Of a DNA stretch of 64,000 bases, positions 6,850-52,549 are shown piece after piece. The notes beneath the pieces were generated by a model. It made no database searches, was not told where the DNA came from, and saw only the letters and a list, made by a program, of their open reading frames with translations. The stretch's first letter is position 1; each line of letters starts with the position of its first letter. This DNA comes from Naegleria gruberi (lineage: Eukaryota). Made by a program: the position numbers and the translations under genes. The stretch lies in NCBI GenBank assembly GCA_000004985.1, contig GG738902.1, one strand, 5' to 3'.

Positions 6850-9120
6850 CAATGAATACACCTCATCCCGTCCGATTTGAGAAGTTAATCATCGCTAGCC
6901 ACATTATGAATTGAGGTTGGAGACAAATTGGGAACTTGTGGTGTTGTCGTCTTAAATTTTTCCTTATCTCCTTATTAAACGAATTACATAATCATCAATT
7001 CATCCTTATAATAAGCAAGAATAAAAAGAATATATAAAAAAGATGAGTTGCAAACAACTCTGTCATTGAATATCCAAATCTTTATCGCATTATTTAACAC
7101 AACCTTGCTCAAATCCAGATATCTGTTGCCAGAGACAAGAAATCATTATGCTGCATTAACCAACCTTTCCAGAATGACATTGAATATCCAATCTGCAACT
7201 CTTTTTATTTGACTTGAATTTGTAGCTAAATCAATGAAATCAGTACAAAATCCTAACACAGCACTTATTAAAATTCATTAACCCATCAACATAGCAACTT
7301 TGGATTACGATAACAATAATTGTTGTTTAACCACGTTATGAATATATTGAACAGGGCTAGTAGTGACAACGTATGAAACACCATAGCTTAAGATATACTT
7401 ATCATGAATTGTTAGTGTTTTAAATGATGGTGCTTACTAACATATAATACTGTACTGATGCAGTAATCACAATTACATGATGTCTTCAAGTTAAACGGAA
7501 TTTCTTTCGTGCGTTCATTTGTGTTTAGTGTAACATACACATCTATACCTCAAGTGTATCGTAAGATTATCAATAGCACATTCAATATTTTGAACATACA
7601 CCACCGTTGTTTCAACAATTACTTTGATTTAGCAATAAATGTCTAGATATACAATACTTACGTATTTTCCTTTCTACTATGGTATCAACACAAAAGTCCT
7701 GCTTGCGAACTCAAGTATCTAAAATATTTAACAATTTTCAAGTCGTTACGTAGGCTTCATCTTTCATTGTTTAGTCTTGGCCGCTTTGTTTTCCGCATCT
7801 TGGTGAAATAAACATTGATTTGAATTTAGAATTGGTGTTCTAATTTTAAGTAATCACTCTACTCTAATAATTTACCAAGCCTTTTGTAAAGCACCATAAT
7901 TCTTATGGAAAAATGTGAACATCAAAAGAGACCATCATTATGAATATATTGTAACACGTGAACATTTCAACCAATAATTGAACAATCATTTTCAAAGCTT
8001 TTTCAAAATCTACTTTTACATCTATGAAACATGAATGATTCAACTGTTCCAAAATATTCTAGAAAGTATTTAAACTGATATTGTTCAGTATCAGTCTTTG
8101 TTATATCACGTCTTTACTTGCTAAAAAACCATAAGTGTACACACCAAGATTTAGAGTGGTAAAGAAACCACCTTGCATATTGAATTTCCATTGAGTCACA
8201 AACTTTCAAATTTGGTTTTACAATGAGAGGTCAATTTGGTAATTTTTCTATTAATGATAATGAGCTCATTGAAACTATTTTCATTGGAATAGAAGGTTCA
8301 GAGGCTTTTCCCTCTACAACCTTGTTGAGTAAACTCTCATACTCCTTCACAAAGACATTGAAATACTATTACCATTCAATTCACTTGGAACTACATCAAG
8401 TAAGGAAAGCTTACAAATAAATTCTCTACCCTTGTCTTTACACCATTTTGGAATCAAAGTTTTCCTACTTGACGACGACAACACAATAAACTTTTGTAAA
8501 AACTGAAAATCATGACCACATTAAGAATCTCAAGATAAACTTTTCTTGCTTCAACTTGTTTCCTTTTTTTTCGTTGTGATTCCTCTCCTTGATTTAAACT
8601 TCATGAGGATTTAAGTTTATAATTATCTCGTCTTATTTTTTCTTCTTCTTTTAAAAGCTTAAGGAGACTAACTCAACAGAAAAAAGAAGCGAGAAATAGT
8701 TCTAAAATTCCTCATCAACAAATTCATCTGATTGTGACCCCCACGGTGGGCGATTCCTTTTGGCATTTTCTGGCTTTTGATGAAAGAATCTGATTTTCAA
8801 TATCGTTTGTTTGAATATATTTTAATCATAGGTTTCCAATCTATCTCAATAGTAACAGGATTTCTCTTGTCAATTGTTTTTGCATCCCCAAACAATATCA
8901 TTGATAGGTTTCTTTCCATTCTTCTTTTCTGAACTAGTTGATACTATATGACCATCTCTCTCTCAATTATCTTAACAGGTCTTTTGTGAAATTGTTTGAA
9001 CACAATTATAATATTGTTATAGAATAGATGCCATTTTCTTAAAACTAGTTTTCTAATAAATTAGTAAAATACTCATTTCCCGTCAATGTTTCATTTAACA
9101 CACAATAAAAAAAATACTCT
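6850..9120. other. About 2.3 kb ORF-poor island with different composition (higher GC, no Asn-codon bias). No intact ORF longer than 65 aa. It contains a 26-bp copy of the tRNA-Lys 3' end.
   Basis: No long ORFs on either strand. The base composition differs visibly from flanking AT-rich coding DNA. Short local direct and inverted repeats are present, for example cattgaatatccaa(a)tc at 7063 and 7178, flanked by gagttgca ... tgcaactc. Confidence 0.3.
8736..8761 (+). repeat. Exact 26-bp direct repeat of the tRNA-Lys 3' end (16 nt) plus its 10-nt 3' flank including the TTTT tract. The second copy is at 10181..10206.
   Basis: gacccccacggtgggcgattcctttt is identical at 8736..8761 and 10181..10206. 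The sequence diverges immediately on both sides. Confidence 0.8.
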
Positions 9121-45688: not shown

Positions 45689-46960
45689 TTAGTTTGTACT
45701 TGTAAAGAACTCATCCTCAGATTCATCTGATTGTGTAATAATTTGACTAATCTCTAAGGCATGAAGATCTCTTGATTGAGTCACTAATGTCTTATACGAC
45801 ATGAATACTACCATGAATAGAGTTACAATAATTATTATACATAAAATCAAACTAAAAACAAAATGTAAATCTATCATTAAAATAAAATCATATAATCCAT
45901 GGAAAATTAGTGGTTGATAAATGACATAACAGAAGAAAGATAAATTAATCCAGATTTTTCTCAATGTTGAAGTTCCATTTGCCTGTCTATCTTGATATCT
46001 ACTCTCAATAAATATTGGAACCTCAGTTAAATGTTGAGTTTCCAAACGTATCTTGTATTGAGCAATTCTTAATCCTACAAGACATCCGCTCAATGTATGA
46101 AGTGGAAGAGCAAGTAAAATTCTTCCAATAACTGTCATTGCTCCAAATTGTAAAATTACCATTTGTTGAGAAGCTCCAGAAGTGAGAATATAAATCTTTA
46201 AACAAACTACTAGAATAAATCCAATATTTTCAACTGTAGAAAGTCCAAGAGCCGCCAAAGCACTATAAACCATTGGTGGAAGTGGATGACAATGAGAATG
46301 ATAAAATAACTTCTCTGTTTGATTTTCAAGTTTAAAACATGATGAGAAGAAACTTCCTCCACTTGTTAATTTCAAAGCAAGTAAAGCTTTTGCAACTTCT
46401 TCAACAAGAGATGAAACAAAGAATGATTGTAATACACCAAATAATAATTTCCACACAAAACTCAAATTTTCTAATTGTGTTTCAACTGATTGTATCATTG
46501 ATGATGAATCCACTGTAATAATTTTCAATCCGTGCATAATTGAAATTAATAGTATAGATGCAATAATTTCAAATAAAAAGACAGGTATTACTGATAAAAT
46601 ACCACTCCACAATACATGAAAGGATAATTCTAAATCAATTTTGTTTCTAAACATGAAATAAATAATTAAAAATATTATAATACAAGGAAGAACTCCAATA
46701 AGAAGAAGCAGAGAAATAGCTGGACTAAAAAATAGAGGAATTAAAAGAAGGGAGAGAAGAGGAATAATAGTAAAATAAAGACAAGGTCCTAATTTTTGAT
46801 TCACTAAATCCTGATGAGGTGCCAATGTTGATGGTTCGGAAATGTGATCACCACCAAAACTACCTAATTCTAAATCTTCAGAGTGATCATCTGTATGACT
46901 ATCAGTGTTAGGCATTTTTTTGATGAATTTAATAATAAGTAATGTATATGATGTCATCAT
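45689..46960 (-). CDS. Multi-pass membrane protein, candidate PrsW/CPBP-type intramembrane protease family.
   Basis: About eight TM helices. EEVAK (EExxK-like) sits in a TM and FHGLYD (HxxxD) in a later TM. The assignment is tentative. Confidence 0.45.
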   Translation of the reverse strand: MMTSYTLLIIKFIKKMPNTDSHTDDHSEDLELGSFGGDHISEPSTLAPHQDLVNQKLGPCLYFTIIPLLSLLLIPLFFSPAISLLLLIGVLPCIIIFLIIYFMFRNKIDLELSFHVLWSGILSVIPVFLFEIIASILLISIMHGLKIITVDSSSMIQSVETQLENLSFVWKLLFGVLQSFFVSSLVEEVAKALLALKLTSGGSFFSSCFKLENQTEKLFYHSHCHPLPPMVYSALAALGLSTVENIGFILVVCLKIYILTSGASQQMVILQFGAMTVIGRILLALPLHTLSGCLVGLRIAQYKIRLETQHLTEVPIFIESRYQDRQANGTSTLRKIWINLSFFCYVIYQPLIFHGLYDFILMIDLHFVFSLILCIIIIVTLFMVVFMSYKTLVTQSRDLHALEISQIITQSDESEDEFFTSTN

Positions 46961-47039: not shown

Positions 47040-47559
47040 TTATTCTTGAGCAACAGCAGCTTGAGCCTTAGCGACAGCAGTCTTCTTTTCAGTCAAAATG
47101 ATTTCCATGTGGGTTGGGTTAGCCATGAATGGGTTAATTCTACCGTGAGCTCTGAAAGTTCTTCTTCTCATCTTTGGAGCTCTGTTGGCTTGGGAGTGGG
47201 AAATGACCAAATCTCTGACATTCAAACCCTTAACTCTGGCGTTGTTTTCAGCATTCTTCAAAAGCTTCAAAACAGCGAAGATTGACTTGGTTGGGTATCT
47301 GCTGTTAGCAACACCGAATTCCTTGGAGTGAGCGTGTCTACCTGGACCACCGTTGTAAATCTTGAATGGGATAGCTTCAGTGTGTCTCAAGACGTTGTGC
47401 AAGTACTTCTTGGCTCTTCTCAAAGACAAACCCTTGATGGCATTGATAGTTTCACAAGTATTCTTGAAGTGAACTCTAACACCTTCAACCTTAGCCTTGG
47501 CGTGCTTGGAGGTTTCTGGGTCAACAGAGTATCTTTGTCTATTGGCTCTAGTCCTAAAT
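47040..47559 (-). CDS. rpl17: 60S ribosomal protein L17 (uL22), 3' exon. A short first exon with the start codon lies upstream of a roughly 105-bp intron and is not resolved (candidate ATG near 47664).
   Basis: RYSVDPETSKHAKAKVEGVRVHFKNTCETINAIKGLSLRRAKKYL...GPGRHAHSKEFG...APKMRRRTFRAHGRINPFM aligns to RPL17. The acceptor tatttag lies at 47560. Codon usage is GC3-rich. Confidence 0.8.
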
Positions 47560-48035: not shown

Positions 48036-50063
48036 TTAACAATCAACAATATTCAAACTCTTATCTTCAATAAGAATTTCTTCCTCATCATCTTCCTCTT
48101 CTTCCTCTTCTGTTGTGGAACTGAACAACATTTGCTTTTCAGCCAATCCTTTGTAAATACCATTAGAAATTTCCATGAGCTCATTGTGTGTTCCCTTCTC
48201 TCTCAATTCACCTTTAGCCAATACACAAATTTGATTGCAATCCTTAACAGTTGAAAGTCTGTGAGCAATGCAAATTGAGGTACGTCCTTTCATTAATTTG
48301 TCTAGAGCAGCTTGAACCAATGCTTCTGATTCAGTGTCCAATGCAGAGGTTGCTTCATCCAAGAGTAAAATCTTTGGATCTTGTAATAAGGCACGAGCAA
48401 TGGCAATTCTTTGTTTTTGACCACCTGACAATGAAACACCCTTCTCACCCAACAAGGTATTATATCCTTCTGGCAAATCTGATATGAAACTGTGGCAATT
48501 GGCTGCCTTAGCTGCCTCAACAACTTTTTCCATTGTTGCATTTTCTTCACCGATAGCATAGGCAATATTTCCATAGATTGTTGTTGCAAAAAGTACAGGT
48601 TCTTGAGTTACGATACCTAAACAAGATTTGTGCAACCACATTGGATCGAGCTCAGCAACATCTACATCATCAATGTAAACTTTTCCTTTGGCAGGGTCAT
48701 AAAATCTTTCCAATAAACCAACAATGGTTGATTTACCAGATCCGGATGGACCAACTAATGCAACAGCTTGACCAGATGAAATATCCAATGAGAAATTCTT
48801 CAAAACGGTAACATTTGGACGGGAAGGATAAATAAAATCAACATTTTCAAATCTGACATGACCCTTAATGGTTTCAATTTTTTTACCTCCTTGAATTGGA
48901 ATGGCTCCCTTTCTCTTTAAAACTTTCAAAACAACTCTTTGAGAAACCATGGCTTTAGTATAATCTGGGAAGAATGCAAAAACTTGAATCAAGCCCATTG
49001 TTGAAAACAAAGACAATCCAATAACCTTCATCAAGCTTCCGATGTTCAATTCAGATGAAACTACTAAACCACCACCATACCAGAAGCAAAGTGCAACAGT
49101 TCCCCAAAGAACACCAATCATGACACCAAAGGTGGAGCCTTGTGCTATGGCCTTTCCCACACCTGCCAAGAACTTCTTTTTCAAATCACGTCCATATTTT
49201 TCTCTTTCTTTTTCTTCACCTGCCATTCCTCTTACAGTTCTCATTGAACTCAAAACTTCTGTAAACATGGCTGCACTGTGGTCATTGGATTTGTTAATCA
49301 TTGTAGTTAATTTACGAATAATACCTCCCAACACAAAAACACCAAATATCATGATTGGAGTGGTTGAAATCATTACAAGTGTGAGTTTCCAAGATGAAGA
49401 CATGGACAATGAGAAACCAATTGCAAATTGAGCAATACTTGTAACAAAGGTTGAAATTCTGGTTGTGTAAATTTCCTGAACTTTTGTACAATCCTCATAG
49501 AGAGTATTAGTAACAGCACCAACTTTCTTAACATCAAAATAGCCCATTTCTTGATCTGTCAATGCATCAAAATAAGCAGTTCTCAATGCAATACCAATTC
49601 TTTCACTTGCATAATTCAAGAAAAAGTTGGATAAAAGAGAGGCAACAGCTGCACCAGCTGCAATTCCAGCAAACTCACTGGCATAAACACTCACTTGGGA
49701 TTTCTTTTCAGCTGTTGTCATGGTTGTTGAGGCAAAAACTGTAATGACATCACCCATTATAAATTGAAACATGAGAGGAATGATACCACTACCTGCACTT
49801 CCAATCATACCAATTAAAATTAAAAGCCAATTCCAACCAATAATCTTATAAATTGTGAATGCATCTTTGAAGGATGGTTTAGGTTCTCTAAGGTCAACCA
49901 TTTCAATCTCAGAGGATGATATCTGCTCACCAGCCTCCTTATTATTATGTTTCTTGAAAGGATTTCTGCTTTGTCTTCTTGTATTTTCAGTCTTTTCCAT
50001 CTTTACATCCCCAACCTGAATCGTTGTTTGTGAAGATGGTTTCTTAATCTCTTGTTCGCTCAT
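48036..50063 (-). CDS. ABCB-family half-transporter (TMD-NBD), 675 aa, single exon.
   Basis: Six TM helices followed by an NBD with Walker A GPSGSGKST, signature LSGGQKQR and Walker B ILLLDEATSALD. Confidence 0.85.
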   Translation of the reverse strand: MSEQEIKKPSSQTTIQVGDVKMEKTENTRRQSRNPFKKHNNKEAGEQISSSEIEMVDLREPKPSFKDAFTIYKIIGWNWLLILIGMIGSAGSGIIPLMFQFIMGDVITVFASTTMTTAEKKSQVSVYASEFAGIAAGAAVASLLSNFFLNYASERIGIALRTAYFDALTDQEMGYFDVKKVGAVTNTLYEDCTKVQEIYTTRISTFVTSIAQFAIGFSLSMSSSWKLTLVMISTTPIMIFGVFVLGGIIRKLTTMINKSNDHSAAMFTEVLSSMRTVRGMAGEEKEREKYGRDLKKKFLAGVGKAIAQGSTFGVMIGVLWGTVALCFWYGGGLVVSSELNIGSLMKVIGLSLFSTMGLIQVFAFFPDYTKAMVSQRVVLKVLKRKGAIPIQGGKKIETIKGHVRFENVDFIYPSRPNVTVLKNFSLDISSGQAVALVGPSGSGKSTIVGLLERFYDPAKGKVYIDDVDVAELDPMWLHKSCLGIVTQEPVLFATTIYGNIAYAIGEENATMEKVVEAAKAANCHSFISDLPEGYNTLLGEKGVSLSGGQKQRIAIARALLQDPKILLLDEATSALDTESEALVQAALDKLMKGRTSICIAHRLSTVKDCNQICVLAKGELREKGTHNELMEISNGIYKGLAEKQMLFSSTTEEEEEEDDEEEILIEDKSLNIVDC
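48300..48500. repeat. Tract of about 200 bp inside the NBD coding region, about 97% identical including synonymous sites to the reverse complement of 52190..52390 in the paralogous gene.
   Basis: Hand alignment of the reverse complement of 48241..48540 against 52141..52440. There are 60 of 60 identities over one block, 57-58 of 60 in the adjacent blocks, and about 80% identity or less outside. Confidence 0.8.
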
Positions 50064-50528
50064 TTTTTTGTATGTTGTCTATTGAGAGAGTTTGAATGAA
50101 TTTCCAAGCAATATTTATTCGATACAGCAGCACTAAGAAATCATCGCTTTACTAGAGCGCTAACAGCGCAAAACCTCAATGGATAGAGTTGCGCAGAGAT
50201 GGACATTTTGATGTGGATAACGATATTAGAAAACGTATTGAGATCTAATTCCATCAACCGGTGTAGAAAAGGAGCAACGACAGCGAACTATTTAATTTAA
50301 TGACTTTTTCGTGATCGATATGCTCTTATAGCGCAATGGAATATGTTGCGTACTAAGAAGTGGTGATGGTTTTATTAACATACAACAACCATCGACATGT
50401 TTAATAATAACAACTCCTCTCAGCACTGCTCGGCATTATTATTTAAGAAGAACCAAGAGAGACAAATACAAATATTCAAAAAAAACAACTCAACACTAAT
50501 CACAATTTTTTCATATACAATTCAGAAA
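50064..50528. promoter_or_regulatory. Shared divergent (bidirectional) promoter region between the two head-to-head ABCB half-transporter genes.
   Basis: The start codons are at 50063 (minus) and 50529 (plus) with no ORF in between. Confidence 0.4.
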
Positions 50529-52549
50529 ATGACTGAAACACATGCATTGGATTATCAGATAGAGATTAAGGATGACAAGCCTACCGATCACAAATTAGAT
50601 ATAGATGCACTTACACCAAGAGATGAGAAGGCAACTAATCCAGCTGCATTATCTAGAAACCCATTCAAGAGAAGAAGACAGAAGAGAAAATTGAATGCAT
50701 TGGAGAAGATGAAAGACGAAATTCCAGATCCAAGAGAACCAAAAATTGGATTCAAAGATCACTTGATTCTACTGAAATTAATTGGTTTCAAGAATTGGGT
50801 ATTGATCTTTTTTGCAACTGTTGGTGCTGGAGGTGCAGGTGTTATTGGTTTATGCTTTCAATTTATTTTGGGAGATTTGATTAATAGTTTGGCAACCATC
50901 ATGTCAGATTCAAATGCATTGAGAGATGAAGTTAATTCAATTGCTGGAAAATTTGCTATTGTTGCTCTGGGTGCTGTGATTGCAAACTTTATGAATCAAT
51001 TCTTTAATACTTTGGCTTCAGAGACAATCAGTAGAACATTGAGACAGAAATATTTTGAATCATTGACAGCTCAAGAAATGGCATTCTTCGATATTAAGAA
51101 AGTTGGTCAACTGGCCTGCATTTCCAGTGATGATGTTGCCATTGTTCAAGAAATTTACACTTCCAAATGGTCAACCTTCTTCCAACAAGTAGTTCAAGTA
51201 GTGGTTGGTCTCATTCTCGCATTCATCAGCTCTTGGAAGATGTCTCTCGTCATCATTTCAACAAGTCCAATTATCTTTGTTTTGATTTGTGGTGTTTCAC
51301 AAGGTATCAAGAAGTTGTCAAAGAAAACATCAGAAGCAAATGAACATGCATCTGCAATTGCAACTGAAATTGTTTCATCAATTAAGACCGTAAGATCAAT
51401 GGGTGGAGAGCCAAAGGAAAGAATTAGATATAGAAATGATTTGAAGAAAGTTCACAAGTATGGTTTATTCAAGTCCATTCTTCAGGGATTCGTTTTCTTC
51501 GTTTTGAGTTTCACCATTTGGGGGACTGTTGCATTGGCCTTTTGGGTAAGTTTTATTATTTATTGCATTTCTAATTATCTTTCGAATAGTTTGGAGGTAA
51601 TTTAACCGTAGACGGTGAGATTAGTATCGGAAGCATGTTTAGAGTCTTTGGTTTATCATTGATGGCTGTCATGGCTTTATCAAATGCTGGTACCTTCTTT
51701 ACAGAATATGCCAAAGCCATTCAAAGTCAAACTTCGTTATTGAAGGTAATTAGAAGAGTTCCTGAAATTCCATTCAAGGGTGGTAAAACAATTGAAAATC
51801 TCAAAGGTGATATCTCTATTAAGAATATTGATTTTATCTATCCAGCCAGACCAAACACCACGGTATTGAAGAGCTTTAGTTTGGAAATCAAAACTGGTCA
51901 AGCTGTTGCATTTGTTGGTCCATCTGGATCTGGTAAATCAACCATTGTTGGATTAATTGAAAGATTTTACAATCCAGTTAAGGGTAACATTTCGATTGAT
52001 GGTGTTGATATTTCAGAATTGGACCCAATGTGGCTTCACCAAGTTGTTGGTATTGTAAACCAAGAACCAACCCTTTTTGCTTGCTCAATCAGAGATAACA
52101 TTACGTATGCTTGTAGAAGACCTGTCTCTCAAGAAGAAGTTGAAGAAGCTGCCAAAGCTGCCAATTGCCATAGTTTCATTTCAGATTTGCCAGAAGGATA
52201 TACCACCTTGTTGGGTGAGAAGGGTGTTTCATTGTCAGGCGGTCAAAAACAAAGAATTGCCATTGCTCGTGCCTTATTACAAGATCCAAAGATTTTACTC
52301 TTGGATGAAGCAACCTCTGCATTGGACACTGAATCAGAAACATTGGTTCAAGCTGCTCTCGACAAATTAATGAAGGGAAGAACAACCATTTGTATCGCTC
52401 ACAGACTTTCAACTGTTAAAAACTCAGACATGCTGTGTGTTCTTTCTAAGGGAGTTCTCGTTGAGCAAGGAAAACATGAAGAATTGATTCAAATTCCAGA
52501 TGGTGTATATAAGAAGTTAGCCGAGAAGCAAATGATGTTTGCTCACTAA
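50529..52549 (+). CDS. ABCB-family half-transporter, paralog of 48036..50063. Exons approximately join(50529..51545, 51590..52549) with a 44-bp GTAAGT...AG intron. Coordinates are ±1.
   Basis: It has the same TMD-NBD architecture. The intron removes an in-frame stop and restores ...LAFW|FGGNLTVDGEISIGSMF..., matching FWYGGGLVVSSELNIGSLM in the paralog. The ORF-track start at 50397 lies in the probable leader. Confidence 0.8.
52190..52390. repeat. Inverted partner of 48300..48500, the near-identical NBD tract.
   Basis: See 48300..48500. Confidence 0.8.

Follow-up and report, generated by a model that had tools for sequence, protein, structure and literature searches.

Two ABCB half-transporter paralogues that adjoin head-to-head in the genome of Naegleria gruberi, designated here gene A and gene B, have very probably undergone non-crossover interlocus (ectopic) gene conversion. 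In the window, the 64,000-nucleotide stretch of contig GG738902.1 that was analysed, the silent divergence between the two genes collapses locally within sharp boundaries, the tree switches in this tract, and the sequences on both sides of it retain their own identity. From these observations we infer a repair mechanism, a role for the proximity of the two copies, and the siting of the tract where their prior identity was highest. Events of this kind are known, and the present one is a clear but ordinary gene conversion that involves no new mechanism.

The two oppositely oriented ABCB genes described in an earlier, sequence-only reading of this region were both present (Table 1), gene B requiring a 44-nt intron whose removal restored its frame and its homology to A. 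The joined exons encode an intact ABCB half-transporter of 658 aa, and tblastn placed a break in the N. fowleri orthologue of B at the same protein position as the intron (B 339/340). The start codon at 50529 was chosen because the resulting N-terminal length agrees with that of the orthologues; an alternative in-frame ATG is located at 50397. The gene A protein, which carries an acidic C-terminal tail, was a 100% match to 'abc transporter AbcB1 [Naegleria gruberi]' in the protein database search; for gene B, no identical or near-identical entry was detected among 5.8 billion proteins, the best match being 66%. The intergenic region presumably contains the divergent promoters of the two genes.

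Table 1. Coordinates of the paralogous genes, the intergenic region and the high-identity segments in the window.
Feature	Position	Strand	Basis
Gene A (AbcB1): ABCB (P-glycoprotein-type) half-transporter, intronless, 675 aa	48036..50063	-	ORF
Gene B, exon 1: encodes the N-terminus and the greater part of the transmembrane domain	50529..51545	+	ORF, alignment to A and orthologues
Gene B, intron: 44 nt, GTAAGT...TAG	51546..51589	+	read from sequence
Gene B, exon 2: encodes the remainder of the transmembrane domain and the whole NBD	51590..52549	+	tblastn, Pfam
Intergenic region: 465 bp between divergent start codons, presumed divergent promoters	50064..50528	.	gene models
Probable conversion tract, gene A arm: codons 521-592, NCHSFISDLPEGY...signature LSGGQ...Walker B ILLLDE...D-loop SALD...ALDKLM	48289..48503	-	codon alignment
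Probable conversion tract, gene B arm: mirrors A 48289-48503, paired coordinates sum to 100663	52160..52374	+	codon alignment
Wider inverted-repeat arm I1, gene A side: 287 nt, 92%	48244..48530	.	repeat search
Wider inverted-repeat arm I1, gene B side: 287 nt, 92%	52133..52419	.	repeat search
Walker A block: matches B 51894-51951 at 56/58 nt	48718..48775	-	codon alignment

The motifs GPSGSGKST, (T/N)QEP, LSGGQKQR, ILLLDEATSALD and IAHRL were found in the translations of both genes, and the Walker A, Q-loop, signature, Walker B with its catalytic Glu, and H-loop are canonical in both NBDs, motif inspection of which revealed no degenerate ATP site. Each protein displayed Pfam ABC_membrane (PF00664) followed by ABC_tran (PF00005), with one TMD of the type-I exporter kind and one NBD. 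The best solved-structure matches were ABCB1/ABCB4/ABCB11 (E ~1e-230), plant ABCB19/ABCB1 were also among the top PDB matches, and the Cyanidioschyzon transporter CmABCB1 (PDB 3wme) was matched as well (E ~1e-98); the database protein matches to A and B likewise bear ABCB names. By these sequence criteria, A and B are ABCB (MDR/P-gp type) half-transporters. The two proteins are 55.5% identical by tblastn, in line with the roughly 55-60% previously estimated, and the genes are ~62% identical in nucleotides overall. Silent sites are saturated outside the tract (pS 0.65-0.66, NG86; 0.65 elsewhere in the NBD), and pN is far lower than pS, indicating that both genes are under purifying selection.

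The codon alignment delimited a sharply bounded tract of 215 nt with seven mismatches (96.7% identity), two of which are amino-acid changes; the arms are separated by 3,656 nt. These values agree with the inverted repeat of about 200 bp, ~97% identical at silent positions as well and 3.7 kb apart, that had been described before, although the claim of more than 100 bp of unbroken identity was a slight overstatement, the longest perfect run measuring 99 nt (A 48422-48324 / B 52241-52339) and the next longest 35, 26 and 23 nt. The stretch originally quoted, EAAKAAN...AHRLSTVK, is wider than the tract: its EAAKA codons all differ at silent sites, and divergence is also seen in the G-R-T-S/T-I-C-I codons ahead of AHRL. 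The wider repeat arms take in the diverged EAAKA codons and, past the tract, a 23-nt identical H-loop block (AHRLSTVK), in which 7/7 silent codons match and which on its own is too short for significance. The Walker A block surpassed the codon-column shuffles, but its silent sites alone were not significant (20/22, P = 0.067); it is possibly a second small or older tract.

Low synonymous divergence was confined to the tract, as had been proposed. Its pS was 0.123 and its dS 0.13 (72 codons, NG86), as compared with a pS of 0.65 outside, falling to 0.05 in the core windows and returning to at least 0.7 on both sides. Among degenerate codons for identical amino acids, 64/69 were identical in the tract versus 151/271 (55.7%) outside, whereas codon usage predicted 33 of the 69 (binomial P ~1e-11, Fisher P ~1e-9). 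No run of 99 nt arose when the codon columns were shuffled 5,000 times (at most 43 across the whole gene and 65 within the NBD alone), and a test restricted to silent sites recovered a core (A 48482-48306) with 56/57 consecutive silent codons identical, a result obtained in 0/20,000 permutations. Chance identity produced by codon bias together with the extreme conservation of the ABC signature and Walker B could be contemplated, given that this is the most conserved region of the protein (83-90% identity of A or B to any relative), that the genome is rich in AT and its codon usage skewed, and that the Walker A block also looks raised; nevertheless, simulations under codon usage never exceeded 50 identical codons (0/200,000), and the effect was absent in other species of similar composition. 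The codon-usage, permutation and other-pair tests thus reject this explanation, whose probability is negligible.

The same segment was silent-diverged (pS 0.53-0.78) in all 14 of the other Naegleria-lineage pairs, formed among A, B, N. fowleri P0010, N. lovaniensis P0003, and the environmental sequences P0009 and P0013, with third-position identities of 0.4-0.7. Other N. gruberi ABCB paralogues, compared as proteins only, differ at 8-12 of the 72 tract residues. As far as these data allow (protein sequences for the N. gruberi paralogues, DNA for the other species), a tract conserved identically throughout the family, raised at the outset as a competing outcome, is excluded. The comparison also bears on the idea that selection at the nucleotide level, acting on an mRNA structure, a small-RNA target or an embedded regulatory element, keeps the silent sites identical. 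The tract is functionally central, lies in the same sense in both mRNAs and is highly identical at all codon positions, as such selection would have it, but the divergence of the other pairs argues otherwise, the tract RNA folds no better than its shuffles (z = +0.88; 157/200 shuffles folded at least as well), and an Rfam search gave no match for either the tract or the intergenic region. Nucleotide-level selection would, moreover, leave unexplained the amino-acid changes that only A and B share and the tree switch described below, and is regarded as very unlikely.

In NJ trees with bootstrap built from the sequence outside the tract, A grouped with N. gruberi P0002, N. lovaniensis P0003 and P0008, and B with N. 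fowleri P0010, P0013 and P0009; each clade received ~100% bootstrap, versus 0% for A plus B. In the tract-only NJ tree, A and B became sisters (98% bootstrap). In the sequences sampled, the split of the A and B lineages is older than the divergence of these Naegleria species. The two genes share CHSFIS, in contrast to the CHNFI[MVIC] of 15/15 relatives, and B differs from A at 2/72 tract residues versus 10/72 for the closest paralogue, P0002. On either side of the tract, in the upstream sequence as in the downstream C-terminal tail, each gene retains the affinity of its own clade, which points to a non-crossover conversion. Since the tract protein is equally similar to both clades (86-90% identical), donor and recipient are indistinguishable. 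The branches of A and B (0.29 and 0.34) are 2-3 times longer than those of their clade-mates (0.01-0.15), and no other N. gruberi-like sequence was found in the protein database or the metagenomes searched.

The collapse of silent divergence in the tract only, the diverged state of the other pairs and the tree switch strongly support gene conversion over purifying selection. Conversion between genes ~62% identical overall is uncommon and needs sufficient local prior identity. In the sequence of events that we propose, the paralogues would have been old and silent-saturated when a DNA break or heteroduplex arose in the most conserved part of the NBD, from the signature motif to Walker B and the D-loop; the neighbouring inverted paralogue would have served as the repair template, ~180-215 bp would have been copied from one gene into the other with no exchange of flanks, and about seven substitutions would have gathered since. 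Interlocus conversion between adjacent inverted paralogues has been documented (PMC3966223), and genes for RAD51/DMC1 and for MSH/PMS mismatch repair are present in Naegleria genomes (PMC9928731). The term "recent" applied to the tract at first holds in a relative sense; with 7/215 nt differing (~3%) and two amino-acid changes, either the event was not very recent or several events built up the tract as a mosaic.

Reads from one NBD placed into the other during assembly or consensus building could have generated a false patch of identity, and a single assembly was examined, in which gene B lacks a public protein entry and so has escaped independent scrutiny. However, the patch has sharp, in-frame boundaries and contains seven scattered arm-specific differences, including the two amino-acid changes; A and B are both still intact, gene A of the window matches its deposited protein completely, and read misplacement would itself need prior near-identity. 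An artefact is consequently held to be highly improbable.

The head-to-head arrangement had also been taken to suggest a co-regulated heterodimer expressed from a shared promoter, for which we found no support. A related explanation accepts the conversion as real and adds that selection retained it: were A and B to form a heterodimer, its two composite ATP sites would stay equivalent as long as the signature, Walker B and D-loop match. In the NBD sandwich these elements face the Walker A of the partner, and the tract comprises exactly them; 465 bp separate the two head-to-head genes, and the long A and B branches could reflect co-adaptation. Against this, the orthologues are solitary: within the available sequence, no ABCB neighbour was found beside N. 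fowleri P0010, N. lovaniensis P0003 or the genes on two environmental Naegleria-like contigs (P0009 and P0008), and no flank synteny with the window was detected. Furthermore, both NBDs are canonical with no degenerate site, the half-size CmABCB1 found among the solved-structure matches acts as a homodimer, and the conversion mechanism alone predicts tracts in the most conserved segment. Asymmetric ATP sites, absent from A and B, are typical of obligate heterodimer pairs but are not required for them. Retention by selection is judged very unlikely. A similarly small chance is conceded to a co-adapted, N. gruberi-specific heterodimer in which recurrent conversion holds the signature, Walker B and D-loop (perhaps also Walker A) identical while the rest evolves unusually fast; if true, ectopic conversion would be a mechanism that preserves symmetry at the ATPase interface.

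The repeat arms were further thought capable of mediating an inversion of the promoter region. The geometry would permit such an inversion. Each arm, however, is embedded in coding sequence and the two share one codon phase, and their geometry implies that both 5' gene bodies would be carried along with the promoter region; instead of a flipped promoter, the sole effect would be a swap of the 3' tails, an in-frame exchange of the last ~85 codons.

Gene conversion between A and B, for which literature searches aimed at Naegleria returned no report, opens no long-standing question, but it would represent a statistically unambiguous case of ectopic conversion from a heterolobosean amoeba, involving paralogues whose silent sites are saturated elsewhere. 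It suggests that N. gruberi carries out homologous repair between neighbouring inverted copies, and that such repair can patch even ancient paralogues, given enough identity from a conserved motif. It is also a warning for ABC-family phylogenies, as trees based on the NBD only would wrongly join A and B, and it draws attention to gene B, an intact ABCB gene missing from the public protein set.

Among known systems, half-size transporters of the ABCB1 type such as CmABCB1 have in common with A and B the TMD-NBD order and the canonical catalytic motifs, whereas full-length ABCB1/ABCB4/ABCB11 differ in that A and B are half-size and not fused. Human ABCG5/ABCG8 are a head-to-head obligate heterodimer pair and TAP1/TAP2 are adjacent; both pairings persist from species to species, and their ATP sites are asymmetric or degenerate. 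The likeness of A/B to these pairs resides in half-transporter genes lying side by side and, for ABCG5/ABCG8, which belong to a subfamily other than ABCB, in divergent transcription from a short intergenic region; in contrast to them, the A/B adjacency was not seen in other Naegleria and both A/B sites are canonical. As in invertible DNA segments, an inverted repeat of ~215-290 bp flanks a 3.6-kb segment with the intergenic region, but the A/B repeats are homologous coding sequence and not recombinase sites. Most documented conversions involve young, highly similar duplicates, whereas A and B are very old, silent-saturated genes whose split predates Naegleria speciation. The closest parallels are the hsp16 modules and hsp70-7/hsp70-8 of C. 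elegans (PMC3966223), which are also neighbouring paralogues in opposite orientation, with near-identity, silent sites included, over a short tract of tens to hundreds of bp, flanks with their own history, and detection by a GENECONV-type run statistic and tree incongruence; the A/B case differs from them in its host, a heterolobosean amoeba, and in a tract limited to the single most conserved segment of the protein.

The coding sequences of the two head-to-head ABCB half-transporter paralogues of Naegleria gruberi (genes A and B) were aligned codon by codon, and the features considered here are listed in the table. Both products combine an ABC_membrane and an ABC_tran domain, their nearest solved relatives are ABCB1, ABCB4 and ABCB11, and the Walker A, Q-loop, LSGGQ, Walker B (with its Glu) and H-loop motifs are canonical in each. 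The start codons are separated by 465 bp. The proteins are 55.5% identical, in line with the 55-60% estimated in the sequence-only reading, and the aligned coding sequences 62% identical. Gene A is intronless and gene B has a single intron; an interruption at the same protein position was found in the N. fowleri counterpart P0010 (about 9053-9090 of its DNA locus, L001), a common position consistent with gene B being a true orthologue of that gene. Gene B is intact and evolves under purifying selection. A database of 5.8 billion proteins contains nothing identical or close to identical to its product (best match 66%), although the neighbouring gene A is present in it at 100%; the public N. gruberi proteome apparently lacks an annotation for gene B.

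Coordinates of the gene pair, the near-identical tract and neighbouring features
Feature	Position	Strand	Description
Gene A	48036-50063	-	ORF, 675 aa; 100% identical to 'abc transporter AbcB1 [Naegleria gruberi]'
Gene B	50529-51545 + 51590-52549	+	split in ORF list; 658 aa after intron removal
Gene B intron	51546-51589	+	44 nt, GTAAGT...TAG; excision restores read-through
Tract	A 48503-48289 / B 52160-52374	A -, B +	codon alignment: 215 nt, 7 mismatches (96.7%), sharp bounds
Inverted repeat	48244-48530 / 52133-52419		repeat search of window: 287 nt, 92%
Walker A block	48718-48775 / 51894-51951		56/58 nt identical, A vs B
Acidic tail of A	48036-48120	-	C-terminus, TTEEEEEEDDEEEILIEDKSLNIVDC
Left neighbour of A	47040-47429	-	C-terminal part of ribosomal protein L17e/L22p, E 2e-20
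Left neighbour of A	45689-46960	-	multi-pass membrane protein; PrsW-family intramembrane protease model, E 3e-8

Gene B has no extension resembling the acidic tail of gene A, and the relatives examined have shorter C-terminal extensions only. Of the two genes to the left of gene A, the ribosomal one probably has a further upstream exon. The G+C content shifts markedly along the window, from 19-31% (mostly 21-26%) in 1-24000 to 31-37% in 40000-64000.

The tract lies in the nucleotide-binding domains (NBDs) and agrees with the patch of about 200 bp and about 97% identity described from the sequence alone, although the unbroken identity of more than 100 bp reported there was slightly overstated, the longest perfect run being 99 nt. 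Two of the seven differences are amino-acid changes (N/T and A/T). Directly upstream, the five consecutive codons of EAAKA encode the same residues in both genes and differ at the third position in every case, and directly downstream the codons of K-G-R-T-(S/T)-I-C-I are diverged again; the amino-acid span proposed earlier covers the tract but, in taking in these codons, is slightly too wide. A 23-nt identical H-loop block found farther downstream is too short for interpretation.

Silent divergence (Nei-Gojobori pS) was 0.123 over the 72 tract codons and 0.05 in core windows, as against 0.66 outside the tract and 0.65 in the remaining NBD. Among the codons with the same degenerate amino acid in A and B, 64/69 were identical within the tract, where 33 were expected by codon usage, compared with 151/271 elsewhere in the pair (binomial P about 1e-11; 0/200,000 simulations above 50). 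The 99-nt run was reproduced by none of 5,000 codon-column shuffles (maximum 65 with shuffling limited to the NBD), and when only silent positions were scored the best segment (56/57; A residues 528-586, A 48482-48306) was matched by none of 20,000 permutations. The codon-column shuffling also marked the Walker A block as elevated; it was rejected as a second tract, since its silent sites (20/22, P = 0.067) did not reach significance, and the block is no more than suggestive of an older or second small conversion. GC3 showed no meaningful rise in the tract (0.31-0.35 vs 0.27-0.30), and GC-biased conversion was rejected for this reason.

Conservation of the nucleotide sequence throughout the family, which the sequence-only reading had named as the alternative to conversion, was assessed with the DNA of N. 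fowleri P0010 (L001), N. lovaniensis P0003 (locus L002) and the environmental Naegleria-like P0009 (L003) and P0013 (L004). Across the tract columns, the 14 other pairs formed by A, B and these four relatives all had pS values of 0.53-0.78, A versus B alone being low. Other N. gruberi paralogues (e.g. P0002 and P0049) were compared at the protein level; against A, their proteins show 8-12 differences over the 72 tract residues and B shows two, which means that the nucleotide tract of A and B cannot be present in them. Explanations at the RNA level were likewise rejected, given that Rfam yielded no match, not even near threshold, and that the tract RNA had no excess of folding stability (z = +0.88). 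When metagenomes were searched, no match came up for the A/B-specific motif NCHSFISDLPEGY written as a degenerate DNA pattern, and a protein-guided scan with the NBD of B recovered no close relatives (best identity 57%).

Neighbour-joining trees with bootstrap were built for 17 Naegleria and Willaertia half-transporters. With the tract left out, A grouped with N. gruberi P0002, N. lovaniensis P0003 and P0008, and B with N. fowleri P0010, P0013 and P0009, both clades with bootstrap values of about 100% and the A+B grouping with 0%; with the 72 tract columns alone, A and B were sisters in 98% of the replicates. Their separation into different clades outside the tract indicates that the A and B lineages are older than the divergence of these Naegleria species. 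CHSFIS is common to A and B, while all 15 relatives have CHNFI[MVIC]. On either side of the tract, in the preceding sequence and in the C-terminal tail that follows, each gene retains the character of its own clade, indicating a non-reciprocal exchange without crossover. In the tract-excluded tree the terminal branches of A (0.29) and B (0.34) were 2-3 times longer than those of their clade-mates (0.01-0.15); both members of the head-to-head pair evolve fast.

The local collapse of silent divergence, the pS values of the family and the tree switch uphold the central proposal of gene conversion, with neither silent divergence in the tract comparable to the rest of the pair nor conservation across the family, and the pattern, as read from the alignments, is the textbook signature of interlocus conversion. 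The event had been called recent, and the tract is nevertheless not brand new, having accumulated seven differences. In the most likely history, a lesion in one NBD would have been repaired with the neighbouring inverted copy as template, and the heteroduplex would have extended only over the stretch in which these ancient paralogues still resembled each other most. Conversion between neighbouring paralogues in inverted orientation is documented (PMC3966223), and the recombination and mismatch-repair genes needed are encoded in Naegleria genomes (PMC9928731). The tract protein is equally like both clades (86-90% identity to members of each), so that the donor is not identifiable from sequence; residues such as DLPEGY, common with the B clade, were too weak for a donor call.

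An inversion between the two arms had also been proposed, and from the geometry reciprocal recombination could in principle produce one. Because the two arms are homologous, coding and in phase with each other, it would give two in-frame chimeras swapping their last ~85 codons, and regulation would not change, since both 5' gene bodies would be flipped along with the promoter region. For a shared promoter serving an A/B heterodimer, the indirect evidence is unfavourable: in N. fowleri, N. lovaniensis and two environmental contigs, the genes of the A and B clades had no ABCB neighbour in the flanking sequence available, and a comparison of these loci with the window flanks revealed no synteny and no shared neighbours. 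The NBDs of A and B, neither of them degenerate, likewise count against the heterodimer, and the long branches of both genes are one hint in its favour.

The A/B conversion is of modest interest: both the process and the protein family are well known, and what is mildly unusual is how old and diverged the two paralogues are, the organism, and the lack of gene B in public protein sets.
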